From assembly GCA_973895155.1 (NCBI GenBank), contig OZ316891.1, positions 23,373,899 through 23,437,898 of the forward strand: DNA of 64,000 bases. The letters run 5' to 3'. Source of the stretch: Marsupella aquatica. Its lineage: Eukaryota > Plantae > Marchantiophyta. Positions 513-61,662 of the stretch are shown in pieces (the stretch's first letter is position 1; each line of letters starts with the position of its first letter). Below the pieces are notes generated by a model. It did no database searches. It was not told the DNA's origin and worked only from the letters and a program-made list of their open reading frames with translations. Both the position numbers and the translations under genes were made by a program.

Positions 513-524
513 AAATGGTGTCCT

Positions 525-9508: not shown

Positions 9509-10702
9509 CCCTCATTCTCCAAGCACGGGTGATTTTGAGACACCAGACCCGCTCCTCAGGAGTCTTTATGCAAGGAGTCATCATTTAGGTGCGACGTTAT
9601 CACCCCACTCCGGGAGATATGAACCTGCTTCCTCAAAGTGACTTCCCGTAGCGTCGTTCAACATCCCTTGCATGATTCCTCCCCCTTGCTATCCCGTAGC
9701 TAATACTTCCCTTCAGTGACCAGCCGAGATTCTAAAACCTCGTTTTCTCTGGTGCGTCCTTCAGGTTGAGACGCGGAAAGGCACACCAGAAGCGTCGCGC
9801 ACGTTGGTTCGTCACAGATTCCACCGGACGCTGCTCACAGCGTCCACTGGGATCGGACGCTACTCGAAGCGTCCTGACTTGCGGAATCTTCTGGGCCGAA
9901 TCGCATTGGACGCTCTTCGCGGCGTCCTTCCTTATCTCCTTTACGGTGGCGATTACTGGAACCGGGCGTTCCCCATAATCTCCGACTTCCTTCACCCTGA
10001 AATTTCTTTACCACATGGTACGCTACACTAGGCCATCCTACTAATCAGACGTCTAACTCCTTCCTAATCTTCTACGCAATTCCTGGTGCATGATTCTTTC
10101 CGCTAACTCCCGAATGGAAATGACTAAATATCACTCCTGTGTGATCCTACCATTCAGCCTTAATATTACTAAATGCAAACTTTCATCTTCCCACCAGGTG
10201 ATAGTTAACCAATGTATGCCATTCCTCCCTCTCAGGCTCAGAACCCAAGAATTAACATAACGATTCCTCAAATTCCTAATTCTTAATGTTCCCAAAGATC
10301 GGATAGGTGGCATCGGTCACACGAACCAGGATGGTTGGACAATTTTACAAATCATACGTCCCGAGCAACGTTAGAATAACTTCACTTGTCACTCAAAGTG
10401 TCTTTGGTGTCTTCGACTATCTCCAAAGCAACTTGACGAGCAACAGCTCCTCTCTGTGAGGCCTTTTCTGGTGGGAGGGCGGTTTCTTCTCTTAAGTTTG
10501 GCACCACAAATTTTTCCAATACTCTTAAGAGAGCTTCCGGGGCGCTTTGGATAGAGTACGGCATCACCTCGAAATGGAAGCTCTTCATCTTTTTAACTGG
10601 AGTGATGACGCATCTTCACAATTATAGTAGAACGTGAATTCCTCTCCCGTCTAGCTCCTTCTGGCATACACTGCCTGTACGTCAATTCAATCTTAAATTC
10701 GT

Positions 10703-10720
10703 TCCCCGGCAGCGGCGCCA
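10703..10720 (-). promoter_or_regulatory. Primer-binding site (tRNA-Asp type) of element A
   Basis: Plus strand TCCCCGGCAGCGGCGCCA resembles the plant tRNA-Asp 3' end with CCA; 6 nt from the LTR end; identical 18-mer at 61625-61642. Confidence 0.9.
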
Positions 10721-10726
10721 AAAAGA

Positions 10727-12292
10727 TGTCGTATAGTGCTAAGTATCAAAAGTGACTCTCCTCACCTAAAACCAGGGTTTCGATCCCTTTAAGAACAGAT
10801 TTCAGAATGAATTGTATAACTTTTATCACTCCGAGTGATTTAGAGTCTTGAGCTCTATGTTGACTTCACTTCTCAATAAAAAAATCGAATAAACAAACAA
10901 CAAAGTAACTGAACTTCTGATTTATGAATTAGAGAAGAAATGAGTAAGGATTTAGAGACTACAAGCTACTGCCACTCCTTCAGAAAGGATTTGGGCTCAG
11001 TATAGACATGAAATCTATCTCATAATTCATCCATCTCACTCTTCAAAACACAAAGGTTAATGATAATGGAATTCTCAATCTGATGAAGCAGAAGCTTTCT
11101 GATTGCAAATGAATGATATGATTTAAAATGCCGTCAACATGGTTTGACATCAGCGATACGCAATTCAGTCAAACTCTAAACCATATTCCAGAATCAAAGC
11201 AACAGTACTAACTACTCTGAGAATCAGAATTTACTTCTCATTTATCATTAACTATTCTTGAATTGGCTAGCGAATCCCGACTCTGCAAGCAAGCCTAGCA
11301 GTGAATTCAATACGAGTTTCAGAAATCTGCAACTGAATTCAATCACCACAGGAATCTCTTGAATTCAATCTTAACTTCAATCAATATAGCTTTACTTCCA
11401 TACAAAACACTCACAGCATGCCTTGTTACAATGGAAGGAGGAGAAAACTATTCAGAAGACTCAATTCTGAATACAGTATTAACTCTATTTCTCTCTACTT
11501 CAAATGAGCATTCTACTCTGTCTTATAAGTGCTGGAATCCTAAAATGGAGGAGGTAAGAACAGTCGTGCCTTTCCAAGCTTAAAACTAAACAAGGGAGAA
11601 GCACAGCATAAGTACTTCAACAAGGGTGGTAGAATACTACTTTACTAGTAATCTACTTCAAAAACTAAGTGTTGAGCGGACGCTGCTAGAAGCGTCGGGA
11701 GAATCTGGACGCTGCTAGAAGCGTCTTAAGTAAAACCAACGGACGCTGCTCACACTGCTCACAGCGTCAATACTAGGGTGGACGCTGCTCACAGCGTCGT
11801 GTGTTGAAGCTGACGCTTTCCACAGCGTCGGTCGAAATCCTCATAGAGTCTTGGTGGCGGTCGGGCACTGCCAAAAGCGTCATGAGGAGGTTGGACGCTT
11901 CCGCAGCGTCTTGAGTAAAAGAAACGGGCGCTGGTCACAGCGTCGGGCAAAGTACACTAGGAATCGTCAGGAAAGCCGGAGATGTCAAATATTTCTATAA
12001 GTGTCCAGAACAAGTAAATGTTGGCCGGAAGGTGTCTAAAGTGTAAGTAAATCTTGTGATATGCTAAAAATAAACAAGTTTCCAGAAAAAATTGCAGGGA
12101 CACCCATACCACAAATGTGTCTTATACACATTTGATTTGTTTAAGTCCTTTTTGACTTTAGATGTGCTAATCTTGGCCGTTGACAGTCCTTTGGATTAGT
12201 GAAAGGACTGGAGACTTTTTGCCTCCTTTGGTAGTCCTCAATCATGCAATCCACCTATTGCAAGCCATGGTCCTGCACACTCAGACCCTACA
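10727..12292 (-). repeat. 5' LTR of element A (~1.57 kb)
   Basis: TG at 10727 adjacent to the PBS. Outer end placed at ...GACCCTACA 12292 (minus TGTAGGG), after which sequence character changes. The outer boundary is inferred because the partner LTR is outside the window. Confidence 0.65.
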
Positions 12293-14599
12293 TCAGATTG
12301 TGAAACAAGAAGGAATCACAGGGTGCAGCATGACACAAAAGAATGAGGGTGCAGCATAAAATATGACATGTAACCACAAGGGTGCAGCATAAACCAATGC
12401 TTTATGGATGGCAAAGCATTTAGGACTGAGCAGCGCAAATAACCTTGGCCTATGATTGGAAGCAATCCTAAATATTGCAACCTGTATGCCTTCGCTTGTT
12501 GTACAGCAGTGCTCACTCACCTTGCCTTTTAAAATCTGTAAGGGAAACACAGAACAAATAGCAATTGAGTTTAAGCAAAGCATTCATTTGGCTCTCAAGT
12601 TTTAAAATGGACAGAGCACACAACAATGTGCACAACAAAGCACAGAGAGCAACAAAACTCCAGCAAACTAGGACTTGGGCAAGAGACACAAATTTTAGCA
12701 GCAAAATCAAATCAAGATAATTCGGACCTGTAAGTTCAACATGCAGTGCTCACTCACCCTGCCCTTTTTTAAATCTGTAAAAACCAAGTTTTATTGCGTG
12801 CCTTCTACATCTTAAGCTGCTGCACACATCTGTTATAGAACCATAAGTTGCTTTACTCTCAACAAGCTGCTGGTCCACCCACTTTTTCAAAAGTTGCACC
12901 GTACACTATCTTTGTGCAGTCATGGCATTACCAGGCTGCTGTCAGAGACCCTTATGAAGAATTTAAAATTGACCACTGATTTTAGTTTAGTTTTGTCCAG
13001 TTTGCAGACCAAAGGAAATCATGTGGTTGTATTCATGGAGTTGTATTCATTGCTGTGTATGGATGTTGTGTGAACGTCAGACAATTAGCTGTAAATTACC
13101 ATAGTTGAAGAGCAAGGCTTGTACAAAAGCCACTGAGGAATTCTCTGAGGTGGCACAGCAGTTGGCAAACCATACACAAAACTCTGAAACTTTTTGGCAA
13201 CAGAATTCTACAGAGTCGCTGCTGGAATCCAGTGAGGATTCACCATACATGCCTGCACTTCTCTTCAGTAAAAAAAGAGAAAAGAAAAGGGCTATGATAC
13301 AGAGGGATGTCAAAAGAAGAGTAAGGAAACCATTGATTGAGGAACACAGACAGACTAAGGAAAACATCATACAATGGAAAAATAAGGACTACATTGTAAT
13401 AATAAGAGATCGAGCTCACCTTGCACCACAAAGATTGTCATGAGTCACCTCGCAGTTCCTCGCAGCTTAGGTCCAAGATGACATTTCAATATGGAGGAAA
13501 GGAGTTTACTCATTTAAAATAGAGAAGGAGTGGCATCTACAGGGACTTTGGGAGCACACTCAAAAGGTTGGCGATACATCAGGTTATCTTTCTAGGTCAG
13601 ACACTGCCAATAGAATTTTGAACACAACAAACACAGCAAACACTGCCAGATATAGAATTTTGAACACAAGGGTACAACATCCTGATTTGCCTAAACTCAA
13701 TCAACTTAATAGCATATTTTTATGTTCAATTAGGCAGCACTAAATAGAACAGCCTTTCACGCAGTCAGAATAATTGGCAATAACCAAACGACAACAAGAC
13801 AACAAACTAAACTGAACATAGCAGACAAAACAAACTGCACTCAACAGTAGACTAATCCGGCAAGTAGCAATCAGAAATCAATAGCAGACAGACAGAGGAC
13901 AACTCGGTCAGAACTCCGGCACTTGATTTAGTTGTGGTAAATAGGAGAAAGCTAAGAAATAGAGAGAGAAAAAACCATTTCTTAGCAATCGGATCTGTCT
14001 GCAATCTCTGCTGCCTGATTACAATCAAGAAGATTTTGCCAAAACAAACGATAAAGCTGAGGTGGAGTCATTCAAAGCCCATTCAAGTCTCAATACTTTG
14101 TCAGAAGCATGATCAGTGGAGCGCTCAGCTACGGAGGCATGGGGTTTTGGAGGACGAAAGGCTTTTGCGGGCAGTGCAGGCAACCGTTCAGGTTTTGGAA
14201 GATTTTGCCAAAACAAACAATAAAGCTCAAAGATAGTTAAATTTCTTAGGTCTCTGATAGTTAATGGAAGGTTGCAGTGGAGCTAGCATGGGACAGGGAA
14301 GGAAATGCAGGCACTTGTGATGCAAAAGGCTACAGAGGGCGAGAAGGTGGACAACCAAACTCAACAAACTCAAAGAACATGTAGCAAATGGCAATAGAAT
14401 AGAAGATCAGAGAACATGTAGCGAATGGAGAGGGATAGATAGAGAAAAAACATAAGTAGAGAGCTCTGGCACACAGCAACACAGGTCCCAACACAACACA
14501 TTGCAGGTCCCAGGCTGGGGTGGAGCCGGAAGTGGAGAGCACAGAGCAACCAGGCAAATCACAACGTACATGGGCGCCAATGGGAATAAGGTCATACCT

Positions 14600-15639: not shown

Positions 15640-17455
15640 GTTATGTCTGCAAAAAGGACCATATGCATGAACACAATTTTGGACTACCTTATTAGTCTCA
15701 CCATGACTATATGACCTCCAATATGCCAACATTAATGGCTTCCAAGATGACAGCATGAGTGACCCCACTTTTAGTCATTCAGATTGAAGCACTATTTAAT
15801 TCACAAATGACCCAATGAACTCCCTTGTACCTCCAAAGAGAACCCCCCAATAGCCTTTGTAAGGACCACATTTCCAATCATTTGGAACTTCTTACCTGTA
15901 GTATGACAACCAAAATGACCCTAATTTGAGGTGTTTTGATTAATGACACACCATGAGGGACCTGTCTAATGACCACAAATTTGGCATTGCTCCAAATGAC
16001 CTCCAATATGACTATAAAAATGACCCTATATGTAGTCATTGGCATTAATGACACCATTATGTGAAAATGACCCAATGAAGAGTACATTACCTCTTGGAGT
16101 GCCCCCTTACAATTCATTTGGAATTTAATAGAATATATCCAAATCCAAATATCGGCACAAACATGACATAGTTATATGGAAGGACATAGTCTTCCACTAG
16201 TATTGCATTATATATCTCTTGGAGAGACAAAAACAATTTTTGTTTGCCGTTTGGATAGGACGGTATGCATGCATGGTACGTGACACTTTTGGCAAATCAC
16301 TCCAAAGTTGTATGACTTGGGAGCGATTTCCCCAAAGTTACATCGTGCCTAAAGTAAACGCAAAAACACAGCTCCAAAGTGCTAATGGTGCAACTAGTGG
16401 TTGGAGAATGGTAAATATAGTATTTTGCACCTAGTGGAGGGGTTGCAAGCTCTATGTGGGGCCACATGGCACTCTAGGGCCCGCCTCCAACCCTTAGCCC
16501 CAAATTGGTCATTCATGCTTGTCTCCAATGACTGCACTAGGGACATCTCAAATGACTCAAAGTCCAGTCATTTGCCTTATATGACATCCCATATGACCAA
16601 TTCAATGACCCTGCTTGTAGTCATTGGCAATTATGACACGACTTTGTTAAAAAATGACCCAATGAAGCTCCTAGTACGTCAAGAAAGAGGCCACTTTAGA
16701 TTTCTTGTAAAATAGGAATATTCCTATACCTTTAACCAACACACATGTCCACCGTAGAGGGAAACACCACTACCACGCCCATCCCATTGGTGTTGCACTA
16801 CCTCATTGAGGAACAAAACAAATGGCTCCATTTGCCTTTGGAACATAAGATATTCATGATCCATGATGGTGCTTTTGGCAAATCACTCCAAAGTGGTATG
16901 ACTTGGGAGTGATTTCCCCAATGTTGCATCATCCCTTAAGTAAACGCAAAAACTCACATATGAGGTACGGTGCTAATGGTGCAACTAGTGGTTGGAGAAT
17001 AGTAAATATAGTATTTTGCACCTAGTGGAGGGGTTGCAAGCTCTATGTGGGGCCACATGGCACTCTAGGGCCCACCTTCAGCCCCTAGCCCCAAACTTGT
17101 CATTTGTGCTTCTGTTTAATGACTGCATGAAGGGCCACACAAATGACCACAAGTCCAGTCACTTGACTTATATGACTTCCCATATGACAGTTTTAATGAC
17201 TTGACTTTTGCTCATTGGCATTTATGACAAGTCATTGGTCACATATGACCCAATAAAGGCCCTAGTACCTCCAAAGAGAGCCCGCAATAGATTCCTTCCA
17301 AGGTTGGAATATTCCTCTTCCCTAAACCCGCACCCACACCATACAGAGAAGCACGATTCCCATGCCCATTCCATTGGTGTAGCACCACCTCTTGGAGAAC
17401 CAAAAAATGACTTTTATTTGCCTTTGGATGTGATGGTGTGCATGCATGGACACAC
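15640..17455. repeat. ~580-bp tandem repeat array, left part
   Basis: Anchor TTTGGCAAATCACTCCAAAG at ~16288 and ~16876; repeated GGCACTCTAGGGCCC; ATGAC/GTCAT-rich. Confidence 0.85.
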
Positions 17456-20400
17456 TGTCACGTCGTCGGCTTCGGCCTTAACTCAGACTTCAGCTTAGAC
17501 GGGCACATCCCTCATAAATCTAAGGGTTCGGGCAGGAAGGGAAGCACATAATGCACCTTATTCTCGTAAACTAGCGCTAAGTGCGCATACTGCTAAATAC
17601 GGACACCTCCTAGGTATGGTTTGTGTTCCGCCGCCGAAACGTACCTTAGTCGATAGCAGGATCAACCCCGGCTTAAGGGCTTCTAAGCCTTCGTGTTGTC
17701 CGCCTTCGATCCGGATTCGATGATACAGGTCCTCAACCCGTGCTCGCAACCACTTACCCGCAGGCTGCACCCTGTGCACGTCTCGGGTAGTGCGTTCGGC
17801 CTGGCGCTGCCACCCATATACGAGAAACCCACACACATACACGCACACATGCATACAATCTCGATTTACACGAAGGAAAATGATGGGAAAGGATTTTACT
17901 ACAAAGGGAACATATGCGTACACTTAGTTGACCCGACAGCCCCGGAATGAACAGGTTCAAGGCCGAGGGTGCACACTACAACGGAGCCCGGCTCCGCACT
18001 CGCCCGACGAGCTTAGTCCTACCCCCCCTTTGGTACTCTTTCATTCCCAGAGGTCGGGACTCCCCGCATATACCGCGGACGTCCAACTCTGAAACTAAAA
18101 ACCCCCCCCTTGCCTCTACCAAGGGGTGCACTAAATACTAAGGGCCGAGGGACGGGGTGTCCTCTCGCCGAAGATTCGCTGACTAAGGTCCTAACTAAGC
18201 TGACAGTCAGGCCAGAAAACGGCTGTGTCTTATTAGAAGATCCTAATCTATGCAGGCTGGACAGCATGGCAGCGCTGCTGTACCTAAGGCAGGTGCCTGT
18301 CCCAAGAGCCTGACTAAGCCAGTCCTAATCCTAATCTATTCCTACTCCGCTGCTAATGCCTGGCACGCTTGCCAAAGCCGCCCGAATGGGAGCGGCCATC
18401 CCGCTGCCTTCAAAGCCTGTCATTGTCCGCCTTGAGGAGCTGGACCTGGTCCAGCAGAGATTTGTTCTCTCGCCTCACCGCGTCCGTCTCCTCTGCTGCC
18501 TCCTGACATGCCTCCTCCAGCTGCTGGGTGTCGCTCGTCAGTTTACCCGCCAGCTGGTCCTGCTTTTCGGCCTCGGTTTGGAGCCGCGCCACCTCGGCCT
18601 GCAGCGTGGCTATCTCCGCCGTGTCCCGTTGGGCCCGTTCCTCGGCCTCCTCCAGGTCTTTCTGCCAGGTGACAGTTTGATTCTTCAAACTGTCAATCTG
18701 GTTCCGGAGTCGTGTAATCTCGGCCTTGTTCCCAGCTTTGGTCTGTTCGGCTAGGGCGGTAAGAGCGTGCGCCTTTGCGAACAACTCATCGGCGGCTGCA
18801 ACCTTGGGTTGTAGTTGCAGAAGCTCAGCCTCTTGAGCCGCAACTTTGTTCTTTAGGTACACGGACTCCACCCGGTACCGCTCTATCCTCTGAAGGGCCT
18901 CTGACTGGGCCCGACCTGCCTTTACTGCGGCAACCAACTCCTGATTGAAGAAACAGGCTACCTTCCGGGCCATGAACTCCCCGGTATCCCGGGCAATTTG
19001 ATGAGAGAAATCTCTCAAAAGCCCGTTCAGAAATGTACCCGGTACGAAGAGTTCCGGGTGGTCCAGGTTGTGCCTGTCCGGAGTTGGGCACGGGCAGACG
19101 TCAACACGCGCGGGGGCCGGGGGAGTGACGTCCAGCCCTGGAGTGTCCTCCTGCAGCAATGTCCGGTTCTCCGGAATAGCCACCGGTGGGTCTTTGGGAG
19201 ACCCGGGCTCGGGTAAGACCTCCGCCGTACCGACTTCTGTACTTAGCCCGGCTTGTTGGGTCGCATCAACGGTTGCCACAACCGACCCATCCGGTACCTC
19301 CTCGGTTATGACTACAGCTACTTGTGGAGGTGGGGTGGGTGAAGCTGGCGTGTCCGCTGGACTTCGGGCCTCGGGTTGGGGCCGTCTCTCCAAGGCCGGG
19401 AAAACCCACCTAGCTGGGACCAGCTTTGTAACGTTGACACGGGGAAGGGTTCGTCGATCAAACCGGGCGTACCACTCAAGAATGATCTCGATGTGGCTAG
19501 CGAAATACGCCTTCCCGCCAATGTACAGCGTCTTCCTTTGCCGCTCCATTTCTTCATGGAATTTCTTAGCGAAGTACGACGCCCACTTCCTAGGTCGATA
19601 GTTCTCGACCTGGATAACCTGGGCGGCGGAGATCTCCCCCCGGGGTTCCATCATGTGGAGGGCGTACCTTTGGAACTCCAGCCGCTCAGCTATCTTGGGC
19701 ATGAGGCAGGTCCTCATCACAAACCCGTTGTCCACTGCTCCCTCCGAAGGAAAACTTGAGGATTGGTACTTGGCTCCCTTGCCCCCGGGAGCCCGTGATT
19801 CGACTCGATGGTCACCTTCGGGTAGTCCGAAGATCATCTTGAGCCGTTCTTCCGTGAGGGACATATTCCTTCCCCGCAGCCGAGTCTGTTGACGTACGTC
19901 ATCATAATTCTTGACGAATTCTGTCATGTCCTCCCCGTAGTACCTGCAAGTGTTCCAGGGGAGAGAGGTGAGGTGCTCAAATCCCTGAGTCTTCAGGTAC
20001 ACCGCATGCTTGGGATGGAGGATGTTGTTGTGAACGTTTTCCCCCATGCGGTGCATCGTCACCTTGGCTACGGCTACCGTGGCCAACGGTAACCCGGATG
20101 CAGTGGCGGATTCCTTCCTCTTCTTCCCCCGTGACTGGCTCGGGGAAGGTGACACTTCCCCATCCTCCCGATCGGGCCAGGGTAGTGCCACTGTCGTTAG
20201 TAACGGGCCCGAGGCGGCCACGGTCACCATGTTGTCTGCCGGGGCCGCTCCTGGGGTTAGAGCAGGGGGTGGGGACGATATAGTGTCGGCCCCCTGAGCG
20301 CTTGTTCCTCTAGGCCGCCTGGTCAAGGGTGGGGTAGCCTCGTCGTCATTGCTAAGATCCACAGCGTTGATGACGGAGCGTACTTGTGCTGGCTGGGCGA

Positions 20401-21450
20401 TCGGTGGTGGGGTTTGGCTAGGCTGCGGCTGAGGCTGAAGCTGAAGCTGAGCCTGAGGTTGAGCCTGAGGTTGCATGGGTACGGGTACGGGTACGGGTTC
20501 GACTGAGTTGGTCATGTTGGTTGATGGCCGAGTTCCCATGAAGCTCTGCAGGTGCTGGTAGAAGTTCTCCGAAGCAAGTGCAGACGACCTTGTCGAACGG
20601 TTAGTATTGGACTCGCTGTTGATGATAGCCCGAACCTGAGCAGGGATGTGGTCAAAGTGATGTCGTTGCAAGTCGATCGTCCTCGGGATATTGAAGACCT
20701 CATCCGGAAGCCAAAGCAATGCTTCCCAAAAACCGATATATTTGTCTCCGTTGAAGAAGTACCCAGATACATCTGCTGGTCAGTAAAGCTCGCTCTAAGA
20801 TGGGTAGTCAAAGTTAAGGATGTAGTGGTGTCGTCCTGCTAGGCGGATGGCTCTCTCGTACTCGCGTTTGATTTCGTATCGGCGCGGGTTGGCGTGTTTC
20901 AATGAGTCGGCCAAGTGCCTTCCGGTAGATAGGAACTGCATCCAGAATCGAATGGCCGAGCTGGAGAGGATCGTGTGCGACATTCAGAGGAGATAGTAGT
21001 GGCGACTTAGAGCAAACGAGAGAGCTGGGGTCAAAGCTGGCGCGTGGACTGATGGACTGGTGCACTACAAAGGGTTGGCTCCCCTTTTATACCTTGAGGG
21101 CTTGTCGATCCCTCGACGTCTCCTCGACGCCCATAGGCTGAACCGCTCACGCTTGTGGTGTACCGGCCACTCCGCCGGTCTGAGTTAGCGCGTGTCAGTG
21201 GTCGCTTCCTTAAGTTTGTTATATGGACCCGAGGGAGGGGCCCCTCCACGCTCGTAACTCGGGTGTGCGAATAGCGACCCGCCGCCAGTCCAAACCTGAA
21301 TTCCCCCTTATTGCCTAATAATGTCCTACCCATAATGATTATCTAAATATTGTCGTTATGCTAATAATAGCGGCCTAAGACACTCCTAACGCGCATGCTA
21401 AGCGCAGTTAGACCGAATCACTCATTAACCGCCGTACCGGTGGCGTCACA
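17456..21450 (-). mobile_element. Giant solo LTR (3995 bp) carrying a long ORF, inserted in the tandem repeat
   Basis: Termini TGTCAC...GTCACA, the same as element B's LTR; perfect 5-bp TSD CACAC (17451-55, 21451-55); cleanly interrupts the satellite unit (CATGGACACAC|TTTGGCAAAT); no internal direct repeat, PBS or gag/pol seen; minus-strand TATAAAA at ~21085-21091. Confidence 0.85.
18410..20719 (-). CDS. LTR-borne accessory protein (769 aa open frame; first ATG at 20539, 709 aa): Pro/Gln-rich N-terminus, central TE accessory domain, Pro-rich linker, C-terminal coiled coil
   Basis: Uninterrupted long ORF; heptad-rich C-terminus (EIATLQAEVARLQTEAEK); homologous fragments at 27054-28133. Confidence 0.8.
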   Translation of the reverse strand: MLWLPDEVFNIPRTIDLQRHHFDHIPAQVRAIINSESNTNRSTRSSALASENFYQHLQSFMGTRPSTNMTNSVEPVPVPVPMQPQAQPQAQLQLQPQPQPSQTPPPIAQPAQVRSVINAVDLSNDDEATPPLTRRPRGTSAQGADTISSPPPALTPGAAPADNMVTVAASGPLLTTVALPWPDREDGEVSPSPSQSRGKKRKESATASGLPLATVAVAKVTMHRMGENVHNNILHPKHAVYLKTQGFEHLTSLPWNTCRYYGEDMTEFVKNYDDVRQQTRLRGRNMSLTEERLKMIFGLPEGDHRVESRAPGGKGAKYQSSSFPSEGAVDNGFVMRTCLMPKIAERLEFQRYALHMMEPRGEISAAQVIQVENYRPRKWASYFAKKFHEEMERQRKTLYIGGKAYFASHIEIILEWYARFDRRTLPRVNVTKLVPARWVFPALERRPQPEARSPADTPASPTPPPQVAVVITEEVPDGSVVATVDATQQAGLSTEVGTAEVLPEPGSPKDPPVAIPENRTLLQEDTPGLDVTPPAPARVDVCPCPTPDRHNLDHPELFVPGTFLNGLLRDFSHQIARDTGEFMARKVACFFNQELVAAVKAGRAQSEALQRIERYRVESVYLKNKVAAQEAELLQLQPKVAAADELFAKAHALTALAEQTKAGNKAEITRLRNQIDSLKNQTVTWQKDLEEAEERAQRDTAEIATLQAEVARLQTEAEKQDQLAGKLTSDTQQLEEACQEAAEETDAVRRENKSLLDQVQLLKADNDRL

Positions 21451-23400
21451 CACACTTTAATTTGGCAAATCACTCCAAAGTTGTACGACTTGAGAGTGAT
21501 TTCCCCAAAGGTGCATCATGCTTTAAGTAAACGCATAAATATGTGTCCAAAGTGTTTATGTCGCAGCTAGTGGTTGGACAATGATGAGTATAGTGTCCCG
21601 CACCCATTGGAGGGGTTCTCACCTCTATGTGGGGCCCCATGGCACTCTAGGGCCCACCTCAAGCCCCTAGCCCCAAACTGGTCATTTGTGCTTTTCCTTA
21701 AAGACTGTATGAGGGACCCATATTAAAATGACCACAAATCCAATCATTAGACTGATATGACTCTCCATTGACAATTTTAATGAACCTACTTTTAGTCATT
21801 GGTATTTATGACGGGCCATTGCTCACATATGACCCAATAAAGGCCCTAGTACCTCCAAAGAGAGCCAACTTTAGATTCCTTGCAAGGTTGGAATATTCCT
21901 CTTCCCTAAACCCGCACCCGCACCATACTGAGAAGCACAACTTCCCTCCCCATTCCATTGGTGCAACACTACCTCTTGGAGAACCAAAAAACAACTTTTA
22001 TTTGCCTTTGGATGTGATGGTGTGCATGCATGGACACACTTTTGGCAAATCACTCCAGAGTCGTACGACTTGGGAGTGATTTCCCCAAAGGTGCATCATG
22101 CCTTAAGTAAATGCAAAAACATGTGTCCAAAGTGTTTATGTCGCAACTAATGGTTGGACAATGATGAGTACAGTGTCCCGCACCTAGTGGAGGGGTTCTC
22201 ACCTCAAAGTGGGGCCCCATGGCACTCTAGGGCCCACCTCAAGCCCCTAGTCCCAAACTGGTCATTTGTGCTTTTCCATAAAGACTGCATGAGGGACCCC
22301 TCAAATGACCACAAATCCAGTCATTAGACTGATATGACTCTCCATATGACAGTTTTAATGACCCTACTTTTAGTCATTGGTATTTATGACGGGCCATTGC
22401 TCACATATGACCCAATAAAGGCCCTAGTATCTCCAAAGAGAGCCAACTTTAGATTCCTTGCAAGGTTGGAATATTCCTCTTCCCTAAACCCGCACCCACA
22501 CCATACTGAGAAGCACAACTCCCCTGCCCATTCCATTGGTGCAGCACTACCTCTTGGAGAACCAAAAAATGACTTTTATTTGCCTTTGGATGTGATGGTA
22601 TGCATGCATGGTGACACTTTTGACAAATCACTCCAAAGTCATACGACTTGGGAGTGATTTCCCCAAAGGTGCATCATGCCTTAAGTAAACGCAAAAACAT
22701 GTGTCCAAAGTGCTTATGTCGCAAATAGTGGTTGGACAATGATGAGTATAGTGTCCCGCACCTAGTGGAGGGGTTCTCACCTCTATGTGGGGCCCCATTG
22801 CACTCTAGGGCCCACCTCCAGCCCCTAGCCCCAAACTGGTCATTAGTGCTTGTGTTTAATGACTGCATGAGGGACCACACAAATGACCACAAGTCCAGTC
22901 ACTTGACTTATATGACAGTCCATATGACAAATTTAATGACCCTACTTGTAGTCATTGGTATTTGTGATGCAAAGTTTTTTAGAAATGACCCAATAAAGAT
23001 TACACTGGCTCCTTGAATGCCCCATCACTATTCATTTGCAAATTAAAATATTCCCCATCCAAACACCAGCACAAACATGACACAATTACAACAAAGGATG
23101 ATAACCTTCCATTGGTATTGCCCTACTTCTTGGAGAGACAAAAAGACTTCATTTGCCTTTGGATACGATAGTATGCATCTATATATGGTAACACTTCTGG
23201 CAAATCACTCCAAAGGTGTATGACTTGAGAGTGATTTCCCCAAAGCTAGGTGCATCATGCCTTAAGTAAATGCAAGACATGTGTTCAAATTGCTAATGCC
23301 GCAACCAGTGGGAGGACAATGATGAGTATTGTGTCCCGCATTTAGTGGAAGTGTTATCAACTATATCAATGACTCTACAATTATGACCGGTGTCTGGAAT
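21451..23400. repeat. ~580-bp tandem repeat array, right part
   Basis: Anchor TG(G/A)CAAATCACTCCA at ~21461, 22042, 22620, 23198 (spacing ~578-581). Confidence 0.88.
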
Positions 23401-26219: not shown

Positions 26220-29200
26220 TGTGACACGGGCAACGTATCACTTAACCGAACGCAGGTCCTAGATTAGGACTTATACGGTCATTAGGACCGTAGCCGTAGT
26301 GTAGAATAGCACGAATAGCCATCTTTGCCATTATGAATAGATTACGGGTAGGTTAGTTGATCGAATGATTACAAATTAAGGTAGAGGATTATTACGCTTG
26401 ATTGCGGTATGGTGGCAGCGGTGGAGTAAAAATCCGTTAGGAGAATCACGCTTGGACCAAGACACCGACTTCAGCTCATTATCAACGACCAAAACAGCCT
26501 TGAGAATGGCCTTTCCCTCTCACGCTCAAGCTCACCCTGGCACCTCCATAAGAGCAAAGTCGATGGAGCTGCGGGCCATTTGCTCATTTCTACCTTCAGA
26601 ATTTGCAGACGCTGCCATTCTCTCGCCTTTTTGCTCAAATCAAGCTGACCTTTACGAGGAGATCATCGAGGGATAAGAGCGGATTGTGGCAAGATTTAGT
26701 CAGGGCAAGTAAGGCCTCCACCAGTAAGCGGACCGGCCGGGCGGGAATGCGGACTCGGCGAACCAGACTACAAAGGTTAGTATGACCCTTACAACCTTGG
26801 GATTCTGGACCTTGTTTGGCGAGGTAGGTGCTAAGTTCTCCAAGACTTACTGGTACTCTTGTCCCAAGAAAGCCGCTTACAAAAGAAGATACGCATACGG
26901 CTTAACTTCATACAGACTACCCTACACATGATTGAGCCACAATCTGAGATCTCCCTCTACACGATCGTACAGGTGGAATAGTACAAACGGCAGAACTGGG
27001 CCCAATTCTTTTACCGTAGGTTCTCGGGAGAGCTTAAGCGGGCTCAGGGAGGAATGGCTATTGGGGGAAAGACTTACTTGGGAAGTCATATCGCCATCAT
27101 CCTCGCTTGGTACAAGGCACGGCGGGAGGCTAGAGGAAAGAATATGGCCACCTTAGCCCCGACTAATGTCACCCCCACTCCAGAGGAGGCATCCCCGAGC
27201 GAGCGGACTACCGTGCCTCGGGCAAACCCCAAGCCGGAGGCCCCAACTAATACTCCGTCACCCCCTCTTGGTGAAATTCCATCACCCCCTTCCGTCGAGC
27301 CTTCGCTACCTGCAATACAACCACCCCCTATCCCTCCACCACCTGAAGAAACCTTCCCCTCCCTAGTGCAGACTACGGAGGAGCTCACCACCCCGCCTGA
27401 GGAACCACCGGTGCCCGAGAGGATGGAGGACTACCAAGTAGCCCTGGGGAGCATGGCCTACGCCTTGGTCTAGAAGTTTAGTCAGACTCTGTCAGGGGAG
27501 CTAGCGACGTACATTGGACAACAAGTCTCAGCGTACTTTCAACCAGCCTTCTTCATGTTAGAGCACCAACCACGGATCGTAAGCCGCTTGGAAGAAGAAC
27601 TCATGGCAAAGGGGAATGAGATCGGGCGCCTCCAAATGCTGGTAGAACACCTCGAGGAGGAGGCCACTACCCGCCGTGAGGAGTTAGTCTGCACCGTCAA
27701 ACAACGGGATGGACTAACCCAGGAGTTGAGCGGGGTGCAAGTGGATCTCAAGAAGCTGGATGACACCGTGCTTCAGTTGTGCTCGGAATCCTCGGCTCGG
27801 GTTACCAGCCTGACCGACCTCAACAACCAATTCCTACAAGCAGCTCAGCAGGTGGCTAGTCTCTCTACCAAATGAGATAAATTGCTGGCGCAGGACCAGA
27901 CCCATCGTGACTCCATCGACCAGCTCAACCTAGAGGTAGCACGGCTCCAGACAGAGGCCGATGAAGCTGCAAACAAGGCGGAGGAGGCGGTGCGGGACAA
28001 CAAGGCCTTGCAGGACCACGTTACCCTGCTCGTCCTCCAATGGGGAAGACCAGGGCCCACCCCTGATCAAGGCGGCTCGAGGTCTCACCCCAACAGGGGG
28101 ACAAACCCTGATCCGACCACAGCACGCACATAAGGGGTGGTTAGCGGAGGGTGTGAGCAGGCACCGCGCCGGGCAGTTGAGTCAGCAACATCTTTTTGAT
28201 TAGGCTTAACAACAAAATAGCTATCATTAGGCACCGATTAGCGGCACAACAGGAAGAAATAGGACAAGATCAGTTAGGATCAGTCGATGTAGGATAGAGT
28301 CCATCAACGGACTAGATTGTGGTCAGTAGACTTAGCTGCTGCCACCCCGGTCAGCGCCCTTGCCGCCGACGGTCAACCGGTCAGAGGAGTGTGGCCGGCT
28401 AGTCAGAAGGTAGTTAGTCAGTAGGCATTACCCCGGAAGGTAGTATCTTCTGGTTCCTTTCCGCAACCGTAGTATTTAGGCTTCCCCTTCCGCAATGGGA
28501 GGGGGGAGAAGGCTTAGTTACTTATTTCAGCATAAGAAAAGGCGAGGCACAGGGAGTCCCGGCCTGAGCAGGGTCAGAGTGCACTAAGGAGTGAGAGCCA
28601 GAGTCAAGCTTGTTGGGCAAGTGCGGGGCGGGGCCTCGTAGAGACTGGGCATCGACTGCCGTTGGGCCTGCTGACCCCCTTAGAAGTTGAGTCAACTATG
28701 TAAACCGATTCTTCGCTGAGTAAATATAGTCTTTCCCTCTAATGTTTCCGCGAGTAACTGGTGTTGTGTGTATGCTTTGTCTGCGCAAAGGCGCCATTTC
28801 AAGGGACGTACCGGGTGCCGACTAATAGTGGGGATTGCCACCCATTGCATGTCACAAGGTTCTGTCGCGTCGATGGCTTGAAAGCCCCAAGCCGGGAGTT
28901 AGTCCGAGTCACTAACTGTGGGAATTCCAGCGGTGGAAAACAAATATACCTATGATTAGTACGAGTTGCGTAAGTGTTATACCAGTAAGTATATTGCCTT
29001 AGCCTGACTTAGGGCTAATCGAGGCCACTACACACCTCCTTGCCCAAACCCTCACCCCTACTGGTGGCCCTGGGCCCTCACTAAGGGAAATGTAATGAGA
29101 CATACCTCTGACTGAAGGCCCCCCAGGTACCCCTTGTTATATTTTGGAAGAACATTAAAATGTATCTTGTTCGTTCTAAAAAGAATTTTCAGTCCTATAT

Positions 29201-50661: not shown

Positions 50662-52077
50662 TTGTTATGTCTAGGCAACAGACAAAATAGGTGTATCCGA
50701 GCGTATCTCGGAGAGCTTCGCCGAGATCCGACGTGTTGACGGATATCATGCATAGGGAGGGAAAGTGTTAAGACACTTACGAGTCTCAAAAAGTTTCCCC
50801 ATTGAGAAAACCGAACAATCCACTAAGACATCCACGTGGTGAGCTCCTTTGCTTTTCCTGGTAGCGCATTGCCCTCATTCCACCACGTTTTTAGCTTCTC
50901 AAAAACTCTATAGGCAAGAACTATATTACCGGCATGCCGAAGTGAATCCAACAATTCTTTATGCTCTGTCACTTGCCTCTCCAACGGTTAATACGTGCAA
51001 ACCGCACTTTTCTTCGCTTAAACCGTTGGTATCGTATTACGGGGTCGTGGAGGGACGCTATTTGGATTCTTTTCACACCAGGATGAGTATTTTGGTTTCC
51101 GCTCCCGGAAATGTAGGTTTTGATCAAGTCTACCGACTACCCTCACCCCACAGCTTTTGATCAAGTCCTGCCGACTACCCCACTACACCTTCACTCGGAG
51201 TCACCCAAAGAGTGCTGTCACCACCCCTACTCACAAGGCCGACTCAAACCAAGCAAGTTTCTTCAAATCATAGAACGGGAGAACACAATTCGGAAAGCGA
51301 AAAAGGGAGAAGGAACACACAACAAAAGCCCATCAAGTCAAATGTACAGATCCATATCTCTTGGGAAAAACGATACACATTGCATGAGTAACCCGGCCTC
51401 CTGCCGTCTACTCAACTCCTGCCTCTCCGGACAATGAGTATGGCTCCCCCTCACTACTCTGAACACGCTTTCAAACTCCTCAGGCTCCACTCTATCCCTC
51501 CTTGCTAACTTCACACTGAGTCCCCCTAACTACTTCGGGGCTATCCCCCTAAATACTGAAAAATCACACCAAAGCACCCCTCACAGGGTCACAACGGTGG
51601 CGGCTACCCTAGCGGCGCCGCTAAAACCTTGCACTAAGAGAAATCCTTAAACTGAAGAGGAGCATGCGGCACACACATGCTGCTAAAACCCTAAACCCAA
51701 AACAAGGGGGCCGACGGTGCCTTCGACGGCGCCCCAACAGTACACGTGAACCCTGAAAGTGAGAGGCACCCCAAAATGGCCGAAACTAGGTGCCCTTCCA
51801 AGTGCACACCTGAGCTCACCCCTGGATAGCTCTTCTTTTCCTGCTTCCGAATCACTAAGTCGCTCCCTCAACGGACTTCAGACGCCTGAGTTATGGCCGT
51901 TTCCGTACCGCAAAAACATAAGTTCTCCAGGCCATAACTTGCTCATCCTGGCTCCGTTTGAGGAGCGCCGCCTCTTGTTGGAATCAGCTCCGCGAGCTCA
52001 TCCCAACAAGCCCATGAGTGACCCCCCACTAAAATGTTGGAAATCTGGAGGCCGTACACCCACGTCCGTACGCCTAT

Positions 52078-53934
52078 CTAATCCTCCTCTTCTTCTTCGC
52101 TCTCGGTGCCCGGACTTGTGCCCCGTGAGTGGTCCTCCTCCTCATCACTCACGGGAGTGAGTGCCACCGTACTTTTCTTCTTCTTCGACGGAGTACTCTT
52201 AGTGCTGCTGCTCCCGCGCTTCCTCAAAGCAGCCAAGGCCTGCCACGCCTTGATGTACCCCTCACCAATTGTGTCCTTCCAGAGGGTAGCCTCTTCTCCG
52301 GACCGCAACTCCAACGGTAGAACTTGCCCCGTGGCCATGGGAGTCCCGGGGGTGACAGACCTGGGTGGCATCCCCGTACTGACCTGAGCCTCCCGTAACG
52401 ATTTCCGTACCTCCCGGAGCTTCTTCTCCAAGCTCTTACTCTTCTCCTGACTCTTCTTGGCTCCATCCAACAAGGGTCCATACTTCCCACTAACCTCCTT
52501 CACCACCATCTCGATAGCTTGGGAGATCACATCCGGGGAAAGTGTGGAGCCAGGTGTGCCGGGACTCTTCCGTTTCCCTAGACTCAGGGCCTCACTTCTC
52601 TTCGCTCGTGTCTCAAAGGCTGCCACCTGACTCCGTAGTGCTCCCACCTGGTTCCTCCACTCCATCACTTCTCCAGAATTTTGCTTCTCTTTGGCCAATG
52701 CTTGCCTCAACGCTCCTACTTCTTCTGCTTCCTTGGCCTTGGTGGACAAAGCTCCCTTCAAGTTGGTGATCTCTACGTGAGCTGCATTGATGTGCCTGAC
52801 CTTCTCATGAATGGTCTGCTCCTTGGTCTTGATCACCTCCTTCAGTGACAGGATGCTCTGCTCTAACGTCTCTACTTTGACTGTGGCGTGCTTGAGAGAC
52901 TCCCTCAATGCGTGGACTAGCTTGAGTCCCTCGTGGACTCCCTCTCTGAAATCCCGTAGCTCTGCCAAGTAAACATCCGGAATGTTGTATTCCAGAGGCT
53001 GTTTCGGATCTCCCACGAGTGATTCAAGCCACTCCAATGTGCAATCATCCTCCTGGTTCTCTTCTTCTCTATTATCCTCCCCACCAGCAGACAATGATTC
53101 CTCCGTGAGCTTCCCTAAAACGGTAGTGGCAATACTCCGGATCTCCGTGGTGAGAGATGATCCCGTGTCTTCATGCCCCGGAGAACCAATCAACCCTTCT
53201 GCCCTGGCCAATACAAATGACCCCATCAAATGTACAGCCCCACCTGGTTTCACACTCCCGGGCTCAGCGGCCAATAGCTTCTTCAATCCGTAGCACCACC
53301 ATCCGTACACATGGGCTGGGTAGTTCTTGATGTCCATAGCTACCACGAAATGCTCCTCATTCAGCACTCCGGATTGCACGTTGCCAAGAACCCGTTGATG
53401 CACCTTGGCCAGGAAGCCCTTATACTCAACATCCTTGACAGCAGAAAGAGGGATGGCGGTGGTGGAGGTAGGATTGGTCACCCAAGTGGCCACCATTTTC
53501 AACGTGAGTTCTCCCCTGATATTCCGAGGTGTGAATGAGAATTTCTGATTCTCAAGAAACAATAGCTTAGCCAACTCCACATGGGGCACTACACGTTTGA
53601 GACATTCAAAGTAGATTCCCTCCGTTCGGAACTCCATCCCGGCCTCAATGTCCCAGCTCTTCCCTGAAGGGATGGTAATCTCCACCTTCATGAATTCTGT
53701 AAGCCCGGTGGCTTGGAAAATGTTCCGACAATCCTCCATCACCTTGGTGGAGGTCTTGGGATAAATTCGACGAAAAATCTTCCTACCCACCGGTGAGGAA
53801 CCCGCTGCCAATCCCGTGCTCATCATAACTTCTCTCTCTTCCCTTTCCCGTGTAATCCGAGTCTCCACGTAGTCACGGTAAGCAGCCTTGTATCTCCGAA
53901 TGCGTGACGCACTAAACTCTGGTTGATCTAGCAT
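52078..53934 (-). CDS. LTR-encoded 618-aa protein: N-terminal globular domain, long coiled coil, basic NLS-like and acidic tail
   Basis: Intact ATG-stop ORF wholly inside the LTR; second copy at 62774->64000 differs by one visible substitution (52868 g vs 63564 a, T to M); PSKKKKS and LGKRKSP motifs. Confidence 0.85.
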   Translation of the reverse strand: MLDQPEFSASRIRRYKAAYRDYVETRITREREEREVMMSTGLAAGSSPVGRKIFRRIYPKTSTKVMEDCRNIFQATGLTEFMKVEITIPSGKSWDIEAGMEFRTEGIYFECLKRVVPHVELAKLLFLENQKFSFTPRNIRGELTLKMVATWVTNPTSTTAIPLSAVKDVEYKGFLAKVHQRVLGNVQSGVLNEEHFVVAMDIKNYPAHVYGWWCYGLKKLLAAEPGSVKPGGAVHLMGSFVLARAEGLIGSPGHEDTGSSLTTEIRSIATTVLGKLTEESLSAGGEDNREEENQEDDCTLEWLESLVGDPKQPLEYNIPDVYLAELRDFREGVHEGLKLVHALRESLKHATVKVETLEQSILSLKEVIKTKEQTIHEKVRHINAAHVEITNLKGALSTKAKEAEEVGALRQALAKEKQNSGEVMEWRNQVGALRSQVAAFETRAKRSEALSLGKRKSPGTPGSTLSPDVISQAIEMVVKEVSGKYGPLLDGAKKSQEKSKSLEKKLREVRKSLREAQVSTGMPPRSVTPGTPMATGQVLPLELRSGEEATLWKDTIGEGYIKAWQALAALRKRGSSSTKSTPSKKKKSTVALTPVSDEEEDHSRGTSPGTESEEEEED

Positions 53935-54351
53935 CCATGCATCCCGAAATCAATTTCTCAATCACCAATCCCGTCACCCGTGGCAATGTCAATTCCCTGG
54001 CCCAAAACAGCCCCCGTAGCCCGATCACTTAAATTCTCTCAATTTCCCGTCACTACTCCGTGCGGCCGCCACTAATGCCTGGAAGAATGACGCCAGCAAG
54101 CCCCACTAATCCACCATGAAAGAGAGAGCTTCAAAAATAATTAGAATCTGGAGAGAGCTTCCGGCAAGAGAGAGAAGAACCCCGTTTTTGCTTTCGGCAA
54201 TGAGAGGGTCGTGCAAAAGGAAGAGGGAAAGAAAAAGGAAGGAAAAAAAAATAGAACCGAAAAAACTCCTGGCGCCTTCGCCATGCGCCCCGGCCCATTT
54301 CTCGGGCCTTACCCTTGCGTCCTCCTGCGCGCGGCCCTATGCAGGGCGCGC

Positions 54352-54680
54352 GGCCATTCCTCCCAGCTCGCGGGAGGCCCTTTAACTCCCCCCCGCTCGC
54401 GTGATCCTCCCAGCTCGCGGGAGGCCCTTTAACTCCCCCCCGCTCGCGTGATCCTCCCAGCTCGCGGGAGGCCCTTTAACTCCCCCCCGCTCGCGTGATC
54501 CTCCCAGCTCGCGGGAGGCCCTTTAACTCCCCCCCCCCGCTCGCTTGCGCTCCTTCAGCTCGCGGAGCCTCATTAATTGCCCGGGCACGCAGCCCTATGG
54601 GCTCGCGAGGCAGCCCCTTCAGCTCGCGGAGCCCCATTAATCGCCCGGGCACGCAGCCCTATGGGCTCGCGAGGCAGCCC
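54352..54680. repeat. GC-rich tandem repeats in the LTR upstream of the LTR ORF (4 x ~47 bp + 2 x ~62 bp)
   Basis: CCTCCCAGCTCGCGGGAGGCCCTTTAACTCCCCCCCGCTCGCGTGAT x4; CAGCTCGCGGAGCC..ATTAAT.GCCCGGGCACGCAGCCCTATGGGCTCGCGAGGCAGCCCC x2. Confidence 0.9.
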
Positions 54681-55008
54681 CTCTTTCTCTCGGACGGCCA
54701 CTAATGGGACTCGCCCTCCTGAGGAGGGATTTATTTAAAAAAAAACCCCCCCCTCTCCTGACTTTGCAATGGGGGTCTCAACAATAGCTCTTGAAGCAAA
54801 ACGGTAAGTCCTATGGGGCTGGTCCTGGCTAGTTTCAAGGTCCCAAAATATTTGCCCACTTAGGTCGCCGCAAATCTTAGAACTATTATGAGAGAAAGAA
54901 TATAAAGTCACCTGGGGCATCATCAACCTATAATGACGGAATTAACTAAAAATTAAAAAATGGCTTATTTACATTGACTATTAACAAGGTATCGGCCTTT
55001 GCAACCAG

Positions 55009-58000
55009 TTATGTGTGACTTCCCGTGACGGGGTACCCGTCACATAGCTCCTCTCTTAATTGCGAAGCGCCCCCGCGAGCACCATACTCTTCCTCCGTGT
55101 AGTACTTCTTTAGGCGCTCTTGATTGATCCGTGTGTTGAGTAGTTGCCCCTCCAATGTCTTGAGTTGAACCGAGCCGTTGGAGTAGACGGCATCCACTAC
55201 GTAGGGTCCCATCCACCGTGTATGCAACTTCCCGGGGAAATGCATGAAGCGGCTATCGTAGAGGAGCACCAAATCTCCCTCCTCAATGGACACACGACGG
55301 AGACGGGAATCGTAATGTGACTTGCGTTTGCCTTGCTCCTGCTCCGTATGTGTCAAAGCCTCTTCTCGTGTCTCCGTGAGTTGCTCCAACTGTTGGATCC
55401 GTGAAGCGACACTTTCTTCTGCCCCTTCCCTTTCCCGTGTTAGGATTCGAATGGTTGGAACCTCAAATTCCACCGGCACAAGAGAGTGTTGTCCAAACAC
55501 AAGGAAATAGGGGCTGTGGCCCGTGGTAGTCTTGTGAGCCAGGTTGTAAGCGTAAGTGGCAGCCAACAACTTCAAATCCCAATCGGTCTTGTGAGCGGAT
55601 ACCGTTTTGTTGAGGATCTTGCCCATGATCCCGTTGGCTCTCTCAGTGAGCCCGTTGGCTCGAGGGTGGTACGGAGTGGTCTTCCTATGTGAGATCAAGT
55701 AGTTCTCCGTCAAACGTTCAATCGTATGATTGAGGAAGTGAGTACCCCTGTCACTTACCAACTCCAATGGTGGACCAAATCGTGTAAAAATCTGCTCATA
55801 CAAAAAACGTGCCGTGGTGTTGGCATCATCCTTGGCAGTAGCTCGGGCCTCCACCCACTTGGTGGCATAGTCCGTTGCAAGAATGATGTAGCGCTTCCTC
55901 CCTCTTCGTGTGATGGGAGTGAAAGGGCCAATGAAGTCCACCCCCCACTTCTCAAAGGGTGCAAGAGGAAGTATGGGCACCAATGGGTGTCGTGAGGAGG
56001 GCCCTGGTTTGCCTTGACGCTGGCACGGATCACATCGCTGGATGTACCGGTGTACATCCCGAAAGAGAGTTGGCCACCAATATCCAGCATCTAGTATTTT
56101 CCTTGCGGTGGTCTCCCGTGCAAAGTGGCCACCAGCTTCCTCCTCATGTAATGCTGCCATGACTGTATGTATCTCCGCTTCCTCCAAACAACGACGAAGT
56201 CGGCCATCCATGCCGTACTTGTGAAGTACTCCCTTCACAAGCAAGTAGGGACCTGTCTTACGCAAAAACACTGCTGCTCTCTCCGGGCCCAAACGTGAGG
56301 GAACTCTAGCCGTGCGGAGAAATTCCAAAATTTCTCCATACCAAGTAGTGGCCTCTGTATTCACGCTGAACACTTCCTCATCCGGGAACCGATCATCAAT
56401 CTCCTGGGAGTCAGATGCTCCCTCAATACGGGAGAAGAAGTCTGCATTGCTATGACTCTTCCCCGATCTTACTCTCACCTCATAGTTGAACTCTTGTAGC
56501 AACAAAACCCAACGTGCAATTCTCCCGGACAGATCTGGCTTGTTGACCATGTATTTCAAGCTGTTGTGATCCGTGTGGAACACAACCTTGTACCCCAACA
56601 AATAATGACGATACTTCTTACAAGCGTAGATGATACCAAGTGCCTCCCTATCGGTGGGTGAGTAGTTTTTCTCTGCCGGGGCCAACTGCCTACTGGCAAA
56701 GTAGATGGGATGGTCTCTTCCATCATCATCTAACTGACTCAAAACGGCACCGATGCAAAATCCTGATACGTCTACGTAAACATGGAATTCCTTATTCCAA
56801 TTGGGCGTAATGAGCACGGGGGCCTCTAGCAATCGTTTCTTCAATTCATCAAAAGCAGCCTGACGGGAAGGAGTAGGTTCAAACTCACTTCCTTTTTTCA
56901 ACATGGAAGTGAGTGGCATGGCTACCTTGGCAAAGTCTTTGATGAAGCGTCGGTAGTAGCCAACACACCCCAAGAACCCTCTCACTTCCTTCACATTCTT
57001 GGGAAATGAGACTGCTACCCACACGGCGACCTTCTCACGATCAACTTCAATCCCTCGTGCAGACACTTTGTGGCCCAATAGGATTCCCTCCTCAATTCCA
57101 AAGAAACATTTCTCCGGATGCAGCTTCAGGCAAGTCTCCCGGCACCGCTGAAAAGTCAACCGTAAGTGTTCCGGATGCTTGACTCGTTTGCCGTAGACAG
57201 CAAAGTCATCAATAAAGATCTCCAAGAACCTGCGTAAAAAGTCATGAAATATATTCATCATGAGCCGTTGGAACATGCCAGGGGCATTGCACAACCCAAA
57301 AGGCATTCTCCGGAATGCAAAAATCCCCCACTCTGTTGTGAAAGCCGTCTTGAGTTGGTCCTCCTCCCGTATCCAGATTTGGTTGTACCCAGAGTAGCCA
57401 TCCAAGAAGCTGTATATCTCCCAACCTGCTACCATGTCCAACACGATATCCGTGAACGGTAGCGGGTAGTGATCCTTCTTGGTCGCATCATTCAACTTTC
57501 GAAAATCTTGGCACACCCGTATTTTCACCTTCCCGTCTGGCCCCTTTTTCTTGGGCACGATTACGATGGGTGACACCCACTCACTATGCATGACCGGATA
57601 AATGAATCCTGCATCCAACAAACGGTCAATCTCCTCCTTCACCATGAGTGAGTATTTGGGGTTGAGGCGGTATTGGCGTTGCCTCACAGGTCGTGCTCCT
57701 GACATCAGGTCAATGCTGTGCTCACCAAACTCAGGTGGCACTCCTTTCAAATCTTGGTGGCTCCACGCAAATACGTCTTGGTACTCTTTCAACAATTCCT
57801 GAATCGTGCGTTGCTCCGTAGCATCCAACTTACTACCAATGTTGAGTGTCTTGCCCTCACCCACTTCCACCTTTGTGTACTGCTCCGGCCTGATCACGTC
57901 CAACTTGTTGCGTGTCTCCTCATCAAAGGTTTCTTCCAACCGTGCGAGCCTCATCCCTCCATACACCGGTGCATCACTCTCCTCCTGGTCTGGTCGGGAT

Positions 58001-61642: not shown

Positions 61643-61662
61643 AAAACAAAAGACCACACTTA

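Follow-up and report, generated by a model that had tools for sequence, protein, structure and literature searches.

A probable solo LTR from a high-copy family of Athila-like Ty3/gypsy elements, carrying a broken accessory gene, in the liverwort Marsupella aquatica

Here, we propose that positions 17456-21450 of a 64,000-nucleotide stretch of the Marsupella aquatica genome (GenBank assembly GCA_973895155.1, contig OZ316891.1; hereafter the window) are best explained as a solo long terminal repeat (LTR), left by recombination, of a high-copy family of Athila-like Ty3/gypsy retrotransposons in which the LTR itself bears an accessory gene, broken in this copy. We consider this composite explanation likely, and its narrower part, that the unit is a solo LTR, very likely. 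The LTR reading is based on the ends of the unit, which match both those of the paired LTRs of element B, a retrotransposon of the same window with a primer-binding site (PBS) and a polypurine tract (PPT), and those of a 980-bp solo LTR at 40187-41166 (-) with the target-site duplication (TSD) TGCTC.

The unit is inserted in a satellite array, with CACAC on both sides, and the corresponding empty site with a single CACAC is found in the adjacent satellite unit at ~22030. Contigs bridging 17456 to 21461, that is, empty satellite units, are present in all 4 sequencing runs used for the comparison of copies. In the original prediction, made from the letters of the window alone, the insertion was called clean and its TSD perfect. 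The duplication and the empty site agree with this, but the right flank (21456-21465) has ~4 bases more after the TSD than the empty unit, so that the site is clean and not perfect. On the + strand the ends read TGTCAC...GTCACA and, as had been stated, are shared with B's LTR, the terminal hexamers being identical. The unit had also been said to equal B's LTR in length and to differ from it otherwise; no DNA similarity was found beyond the ends, but B's LTR is 4,078 bp long, not 3,995 bp. Pfam, motif and repeat searches of 17456-21450 agreed with the earlier description in finding no gag/pol domain, no PBS motif and no internal repeat of at least 40 nt, and they detected no transposase or integrase domain and 0 inverted pairs of at least 40 nt. 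The check proposed at the time, for short internal LTRs or clear terminal inverted repeats, found neither, and the unit does not qualify as a terminal-repeat retrotransposon in miniature (TRIM), a large retrotransposon derivative (LARD) or an autonomous DNA transposon. Both flanks are satellite, with neither PPT nor PBS (PPT matrix score -16).

Element B supplies the standard for these ends. The 5' LTR of B begins at 61663, and the 2,338 bp of it that lie inside the window are 99.96% identical to the 3' LTR; B also has a purine tract and a PBS of the TGGCGCCG type. The 980-bp solo LTR has termini of the same type and no gene, and its similarity to the two ends of B's LTR is about 69-73%.

The accessory ORF (open reading frame) begins at the ATG at 20983, the first after the TATA box, in the frame of the long ORF, and contains in-frame stops at codons 63 and 68. 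At both positions the other copies in the 4 runs, which come from three organisms and three studies, read another letter, and neither substitute is a stop. Since the other copies read through, the family ORF is 857 codons long, and the present copy is a nonsense allele of it. The earlier claim of an intact gene of ~710-770 aa is therefore withdrawn: two in-frame stops follow the first ATG and the bulk of the other copies lack them, while the ~710-aa reading (709 aa) is the 3' remnant of the 857-codon frame obtained by starting at the internal Met149. Beyond the second stop 789 codons stay open, including the conserved domain. The TATAAAA reported upstream of the long ORF was found again at 21091-21085 (-). 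An intron removing both stops, for which a branch-point-like CTGAC...CAG is present, is ruled out by the other copies being stop-free at both places.

Parts of 17456-21450 are present in six listed runs, and 4 of the 7 runs listed were compared, the best-matching of which may be the source sample. Per run, 452 to 14,307 contigs aligned to the unit with its 200-bp satellite flanks, most of them 90-99% alike, and contigs cover all 30 bins of the unit evenly; hence the family is large, diverged and of high copy number. Another copy appears to share the boundary at 21451, since a 548-base X3 contig fits only 21304-21451 and departs from the unit into other sequence beyond it. The 25 differences scored within the ORF comprise 14 synonymous changes, 9 non-synonymous changes and 2 stops, with 15 at third positions, and were drawn from the 40 best-supported of 471 differences rather than at random, which tempers their weight for our proposal; 2 further listed ORF rows were excluded as lying mainly in one run or having a low share. 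They may hint at selection on the family's reading frame, from which no rate is derivable.

A decayed sister unit is present at 26220-28856. Its protein is 45% identical to the accessory ORF over 99 aa (E 2e-19) and 24% over 427 aa, and blastn gives no DNA match where the proteins are 45% identical over 99 aa. Within the aligned frame, the sister ORF is interrupted by 3 stops; its C-terminal half is kept and its N-terminal half is not alignable. The two units also have in common a 3' non-coding block that includes TAGTATTTAG (score 113, shuffles at most 40). Since both carry stops, both gene-bearing solos of the window are dead.

The position of the homologous ORF was also compared among metagenome relatives. 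Scanning metagenomes with 27 aligned polyproteins yielded 72 loci, in 8 of which an ORF is matched by the extra-ORF domain of element A, the other retrotransposon of the window; L010 was added by a hidden Markov model (HMM). In 7 loci (L004, L005, L010, L013, L014, L016, L029) a conserved pre-PPT motif, a purine tract and a TG occur within ~100 bp past pol and ahead of the ORF, which suggests that the ORF lies downstream of the PPT and so inside the LTR. In L004 and L005 the TG start matches, in inverted form, the LTR end that precedes the PBS, so that their ORF is inside the LTR. The same signal stands behind the post-pol ORF in L007, L011 and L015, making their ORF internal, and it gives no placement for L008, L012 and A; the sequence upstream of A's PBS has no repeat of A's ORF. 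The regular expression for the pre-PPT motif produced one extra match, at L014:5929, that has no purine tract, and it failed to pick up B, L007, L009 and L010; these four were positioned by inspection. In a tree of 23 integrase sequences, restricted to loci with both the integrase stretch and an assigned ORF, the 7 in-LTR loci form one clade (99.9/100) among internal-ORF elements. The original prediction saw in the unit a second gene-in-LTR family in its solo state and part of a lineage-wide system. The ends, the TSD, the sister and these relatives support such a family, albeit with a gene that is not intact here, and the 7 relatives together with the sister suggest an architecture that reaches beyond the window; the dispersal role assigned to it is not supported. 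Viral contigs searched with B's pol gave no usable locus, and 3 matches there to the PBS pattern were judged from their flanks to be unrelated.

The predicted accessory protein (Table 1) has a second linker between the central domain and the predicted coiled coil. No transmembrane segment was found in it (top 19-residue hydropathy window 1.17), and thus it is not env-like. Over its whole length the central domain can be aligned with A's post-pol ORF (BLASTP 21% over 229 aa, E 1e-4). An HMM of 8 post-pol extra-ORF domains picked out the accessory ORF among 6,809 frame pieces at E 0.003, with a score of 18.9 bits where 2,000 shuffles reached at most 9.8, and hhalign of the domain against the metagenome extra-ORF family gave a probability of 71 and E 3.7e-5. 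By these comparisons the central domain is distantly homologous to the extra ORFs of bryophyte-type Athila-like Ty3/gypsy elements. A direct homolog search with the 789-aa frame matched 0 of 7,990 candidates at E<=0.001, a profile search for longer proteins matched 3 of 7,995, all unnamed and without Pfam domains, and a PDB sequence search with the accessory protein returned 3 chance-level matches only. In the ESM Atlas the top matches are unnamed Streptophyta clusters (0.91-0.92), followed by DUF1985 (0.89) and PMD (0.88). One of 9 aligned relatives, L011, matches PF20167 (E 4e-5), below the curated cut-off.

Several results weigh against our proposal. No copy of the 17456-21450 family was seen adjoining a PBS, a PPT or gag-pol, a metagenome scan with the accessory domain having given 65 pattern matches of which none was confirmed, and for that reason its solo status is inferred and not shown; with no pol in the unit itself, placing its family within the in-LTR clade is equally indirect. 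In the 7 relatives the extent of the LTR comes from collapsed contigs, one end at a time, and not from paired LTRs, and only B shows a gene in both LTRs directly. B, in turn, joins the in-LTR clade weakly (60/67; FastTree 0.94), and its LTR ORF has no relation to the accessory ORF by BLASTP, hhalign or Atlas, so that B and the unit would have a layout in common, but a common gene is not demonstrable. That the central domain is homologous to the extra ORFs rests on profile methods, because tblastn with the accessory protein matched 0 of 75 loci at E<=0.05. The accessory protein has no match to Pfam PF10536 (PMD), PF09331 (DUF1985) or PF20167 (Transposase_32), and with Atlas matches to named families below 0.9 a PMD-like domain is a lead and not a membership. 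Its predicted folds are of low confidence (predicted local distance difference test 31 from the single sequence, 54 from an alignment), and Foldseek found no match for them in PDB or BFVD at E<=0.001.

How might such a unit have arisen? A full element would have inserted into the satellite and its two LTRs would then have recombined, leaving the solo. Before this, the extra ORF of the lineage, internal in relatives, would have moved downstream of the polypurine tract, from where it would be copied into both LTRs at each reverse transcription. We lean towards a position of the gene in U3, a point we hold a little less firmly than the composite explanation, on the grounds that a second TATA stands in L005 ~190 bp ahead of the end of the LTR, that B's gene sits between two blocks common to the gene-less 980-bp solo, and that the 3' block of the unit is conserved in the sister. 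The LTR would then have two promoters, with the upstream TATA serving the gene and the downstream one the genomic RNA. The gene may have entered the LTR when plus-strand priming moved to a tract farther upstream; this fits the tree, but the test for a relic tract in internal-ORF elements failed. With a 16-base matrix, only 2 of the 8 loci scored (L006 and L008) had a site just past pol among their four best, and a relic PPT is not supported, L006 and L008 being unsettled and integrase codons scoring higher.

The position in U3 has to be weighed against one in R/U5, in which the TATA at 21091 would start the genomic RNA, the accessory ORF would be the first cistron and gag-pol would be reached through splicing or re-initiation. 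Ogre, with a 5' ORF ahead of gag, is a parallel; 21091 is the sole canonical TATA[AT]A in the unit, and the downstream candidate at 18131-18140 is non-canonical and based on conservation with a single sister copy. Such an arrangement would nevertheless call for a minus-strand strong-stop DNA ~3.6 kb long, or else for an R of ~3 kb, L005 has a TATA near its LTR end in addition to one ahead of its ORF, and the gene-less 980-bp solo retains the last ~740 bp of a B-type LTR. We therefore regard R/U5 as unlikely. It is more unlikely still that the unit is no LTR and is instead a non-autonomous mobile unit with its own gene, which a gypsy-type or Ginger-like integrase recognising TGT...ACA would mobilise in trans. 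Such a unit would account for the family being abundant and evenly covered over its whole length, for the ends being imperfect inverted repeats of one another, alike at about 10 of 14 bases, and for a full-length partner not having been observed. However, the unit contains no transposase or integrase, its ends are identical to those of LTRs proven as such in this window, the homologous ORF is always behind pol in retrotransposon loci, and the lack of short internal LTRs excludes a TRIM or LARD.

Least probable of all, and in our judgement very improbable, is that solo LTRs are a maintained means of dispersing working promoter-plus-gene cassettes, as the original prediction had suggested, with this copy making a 709-aa protein from Met149. 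The 789 open codons past the second stop, with their conserved domain, would permit such a protein, and intact solos elsewhere in the genome are conceivable. Upstream of Met149, however, stand the two stops that are absent from the family bulk, as well as two in-frame and two out-of-frame ATGs, and the sister solo is no better preserved. Moreover, solo LTRs arise by LTR-LTR recombination after the insertion of a full element and do not move on their own. Solos are thus recombination relics and not agents of dispersal, and the dispersal claim is not supported.

A whole gene inside an LTR is known from mouse mammary tumour virus, in which sag lies in U3, is duplicated at each replication and is kept in solo LTRs; Sag is a membrane superantigen of a vertebrate retrovirus, an unrelated protein of about a third of the length of the accessory protein. 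For function, we turn to plant systems. By analogy with PMD-C and VANC, the accessory protein, with its PMD/DUF1985-like domain, KKRK motif and coiled coil, would bind element DNA or chromatin and counter host silencing; that it is a nuclear, chromatin-acting, counter-silencing protein is a tentative suggestion, which we hold to be somewhat less probable than its contrary. In the available text of the source, PMD-C resembles the DUF1985 of VANC and opposes Polycomb silencing, and an anti-silencing role of transposon-encoded PMDs is given as a hypothesis (bioRxiv 10.1101/2024.09.27.615353). Compared with PMD-A/Ogre, host MAIN/MAIL1 and the DUF1985 of VANC as described in the consulted parts of PMC5418596 and the same preprint, the accessory protein is similar in its Atlas features, which resemble PMD and DUF1985 clusters, but the cases reported there are from angiosperms, and the accessory protein has no PF10536 or PF09331 match and a function that is only predicted.

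In architecture, the Athila/OTA non-chromoviruses with an extra ORF (eORF) of the eORF-3'F type, so far as the excerpts of PMC6317226 and PMC7264820 go, resemble what is found here in the gag-PR-RT-RH-INT (protease, reverse transcriptase, RNase H, integrase) order of A and B, the TGGCGCCG-type PBS, long LTRs, a 5-bp TSD and a sense extra ORF behind pol in neighbouring full elements; they differ in that the ORF here lies within the LTR itself, and its product has no membrane segment. The Retand/Grande extra ORFs (TRP28 with a coiled coil; PMC11963269, in part) also pair a predicted DNA-binding domain with a coiled-coil part in an accessory gene, and the Grande protein is cited there as nuclear and as having its own promoter. 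According to the same portion of that paper, however, they are antisense, internal, accompanied by LTRs of 0.3-1.2 kb and limited to flowering plants.

Plant Ty3/gypsy elements are well known to carry extra ORFs, which in the passages available to us are described as internal (PMC7264820; PMC11963269; PMC6431247). In the literature searched, which was limited in scope and did not extend to the REXdb supplements (eORFs per element), we found no description of a gene inside a plant retrotransposon LTR. At the clade level, the gene-in-LTR variant appears real and is probably undescribed. A more far-reaching scenario, which we consider doubtful, is that a bryophyte Athila-like clade moved a PMD/VANC-like anti-silencing gene into U3, and that solo LTRs keep a trans-acting counter-silencing gene until they decay. 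If true, each insertion would carry two expressed gene copies, and the host's formation of solo LTRs would turn from a defence into a reservoir for the element, even though the locus at 17456-21450 is itself a pseudogenised, dead copy.

The findings also bear on wider questions. Extra ORFs are common in plant retrotransposons, and an in-LTR clade beside internal-ORF sisters would be a natural experiment on shifts of the LTR boundary and on the role of the accessory protein. Annotation tools take LTRs as non-coding and would miss or miscall genes borne by them. The distant likeness to PMD/DUF1985, in turn, leads to a testable anti-silencing hypothesis for bryophytes.

Table 1. Coordinates of the 4-kb unit, its gene and related features in the window (strand ".": none assigned)
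Feature	Position	Strand	Remarks
Inferred solo LTR	17456..21450	-	3,995 bp; TGTGAC...GTGACA on element/coding strand; flanks without PPT-like tract or PBS
TSD, left copy CACAC	17451..17455	+	empty site in next satellite unit
TSD, right copy CACAC	21451..21455	+	
Satellite array, left of insertion	15934..17450	.	~580-bp unit
Satellite array, right of insertion	21456..23366	.	~580-bp unit
TATAAAA, likely accessory-gene promoter (predicted)	21085..21091	-	108 bp upstream of ATG
Accessory ORF	18410..20983	-	857 codons in family; two in-frame stops in this copy
Premature stop 1, codon 63	20795..20797	-	absent from 98.4-100% of other copies' depth
Premature stop 2, codon 68	20780..20782	-	absent from 99.7-100% of other copies' depth
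N-terminal globular-looking part			aa 1-128 of the 857-codon protein
KKRK, putative nuclear-localisation-like motif	20114..20125	-	aa 287-290; end of Pro/Gln/Ser/Thr-rich linker
Conserved central domain	19454..20071	-	aa ~305-510; homologue of the extra-ORF domain in bryophyte-type retrotransposons; likeness to PMD/DUF1985/Transposase_32 a lead
Predicted C-terminal coiled coil	18413..18883	-	aa ~701-857; sub-threshold coiled-coil Pfam matches only
TAGTATTTAG, candidate TATA-like box for genomic RNA	18131..18140	-	conserved in sister within homologous 3' non-coding block; putative role
Decayed sister unit	26220..28856	+	ends TGTGACA...TGTCACA; stops within the homologous ORF; clean TSD lacking
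Element B 3' LTR	50967..55044	-	4,078 bp; 623-codon open frame (52078-53949)

Elements A and B both encode RT-RH-INT with gag-PR upstream, without a Pfam match to a second RNase H or a chromodomain, and have their PBS in common. The closest named matches of the B polyprotein are from Calypogeia fissa (71-72%) and Riccia sorocarpa (53-60%), with angiosperms at 41-50%, which points to a liverwort or other bryophyte as the likely host; for A and B together, identity is 40-43% to unnamed angiosperm polyproteins and 56-72% to those of liverworts. By these features both appear to fit the Athila-like non-chromoviruses as defined in the part of PMC6317226 available to us, the trees of this analysis being built without named reference elements.

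Some further observations concern B and its solo relative. B's PBS (61642-61662, -) starts 20 bases past the LTR end set by LTR-LTR identity, the distance being 4-9 bases in the relatives L004, L005, L007 and L009. For B's LTR ORF (50967-55044 and 61663-64000, -) neither a relative nor a canonical TATA was detected; tandem repeats of 47 bp and 64 bp lie upstream of it. The left flank of the 40187-41166 solo (CTTTGTGCTC) resembles that of B (CTTTATGCTC), which hints at a target preference.

As for A, its extra ORF (525-3170, -) and that at L007:4213-6447 have a second C-terminal domain in common (32% over 171 aa), which is absent from the other relatives. Past A's extra ORF, at 36-524 (-), a 162-codon frame gives a weak match to the aspartyl-protease family PF13650 (E 0.024), possibly a second retropepsin. 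Finally, a 419-codon open frame at 49150-50409 (-), adjoining 26/86/127/235-bp tandem repeats at 47950-49220, has no Pfam match and contains a C-x-C...C-x-H motif which, by eye, we take to be SWIM-like; it is probably the remnant of a DNA transposon.

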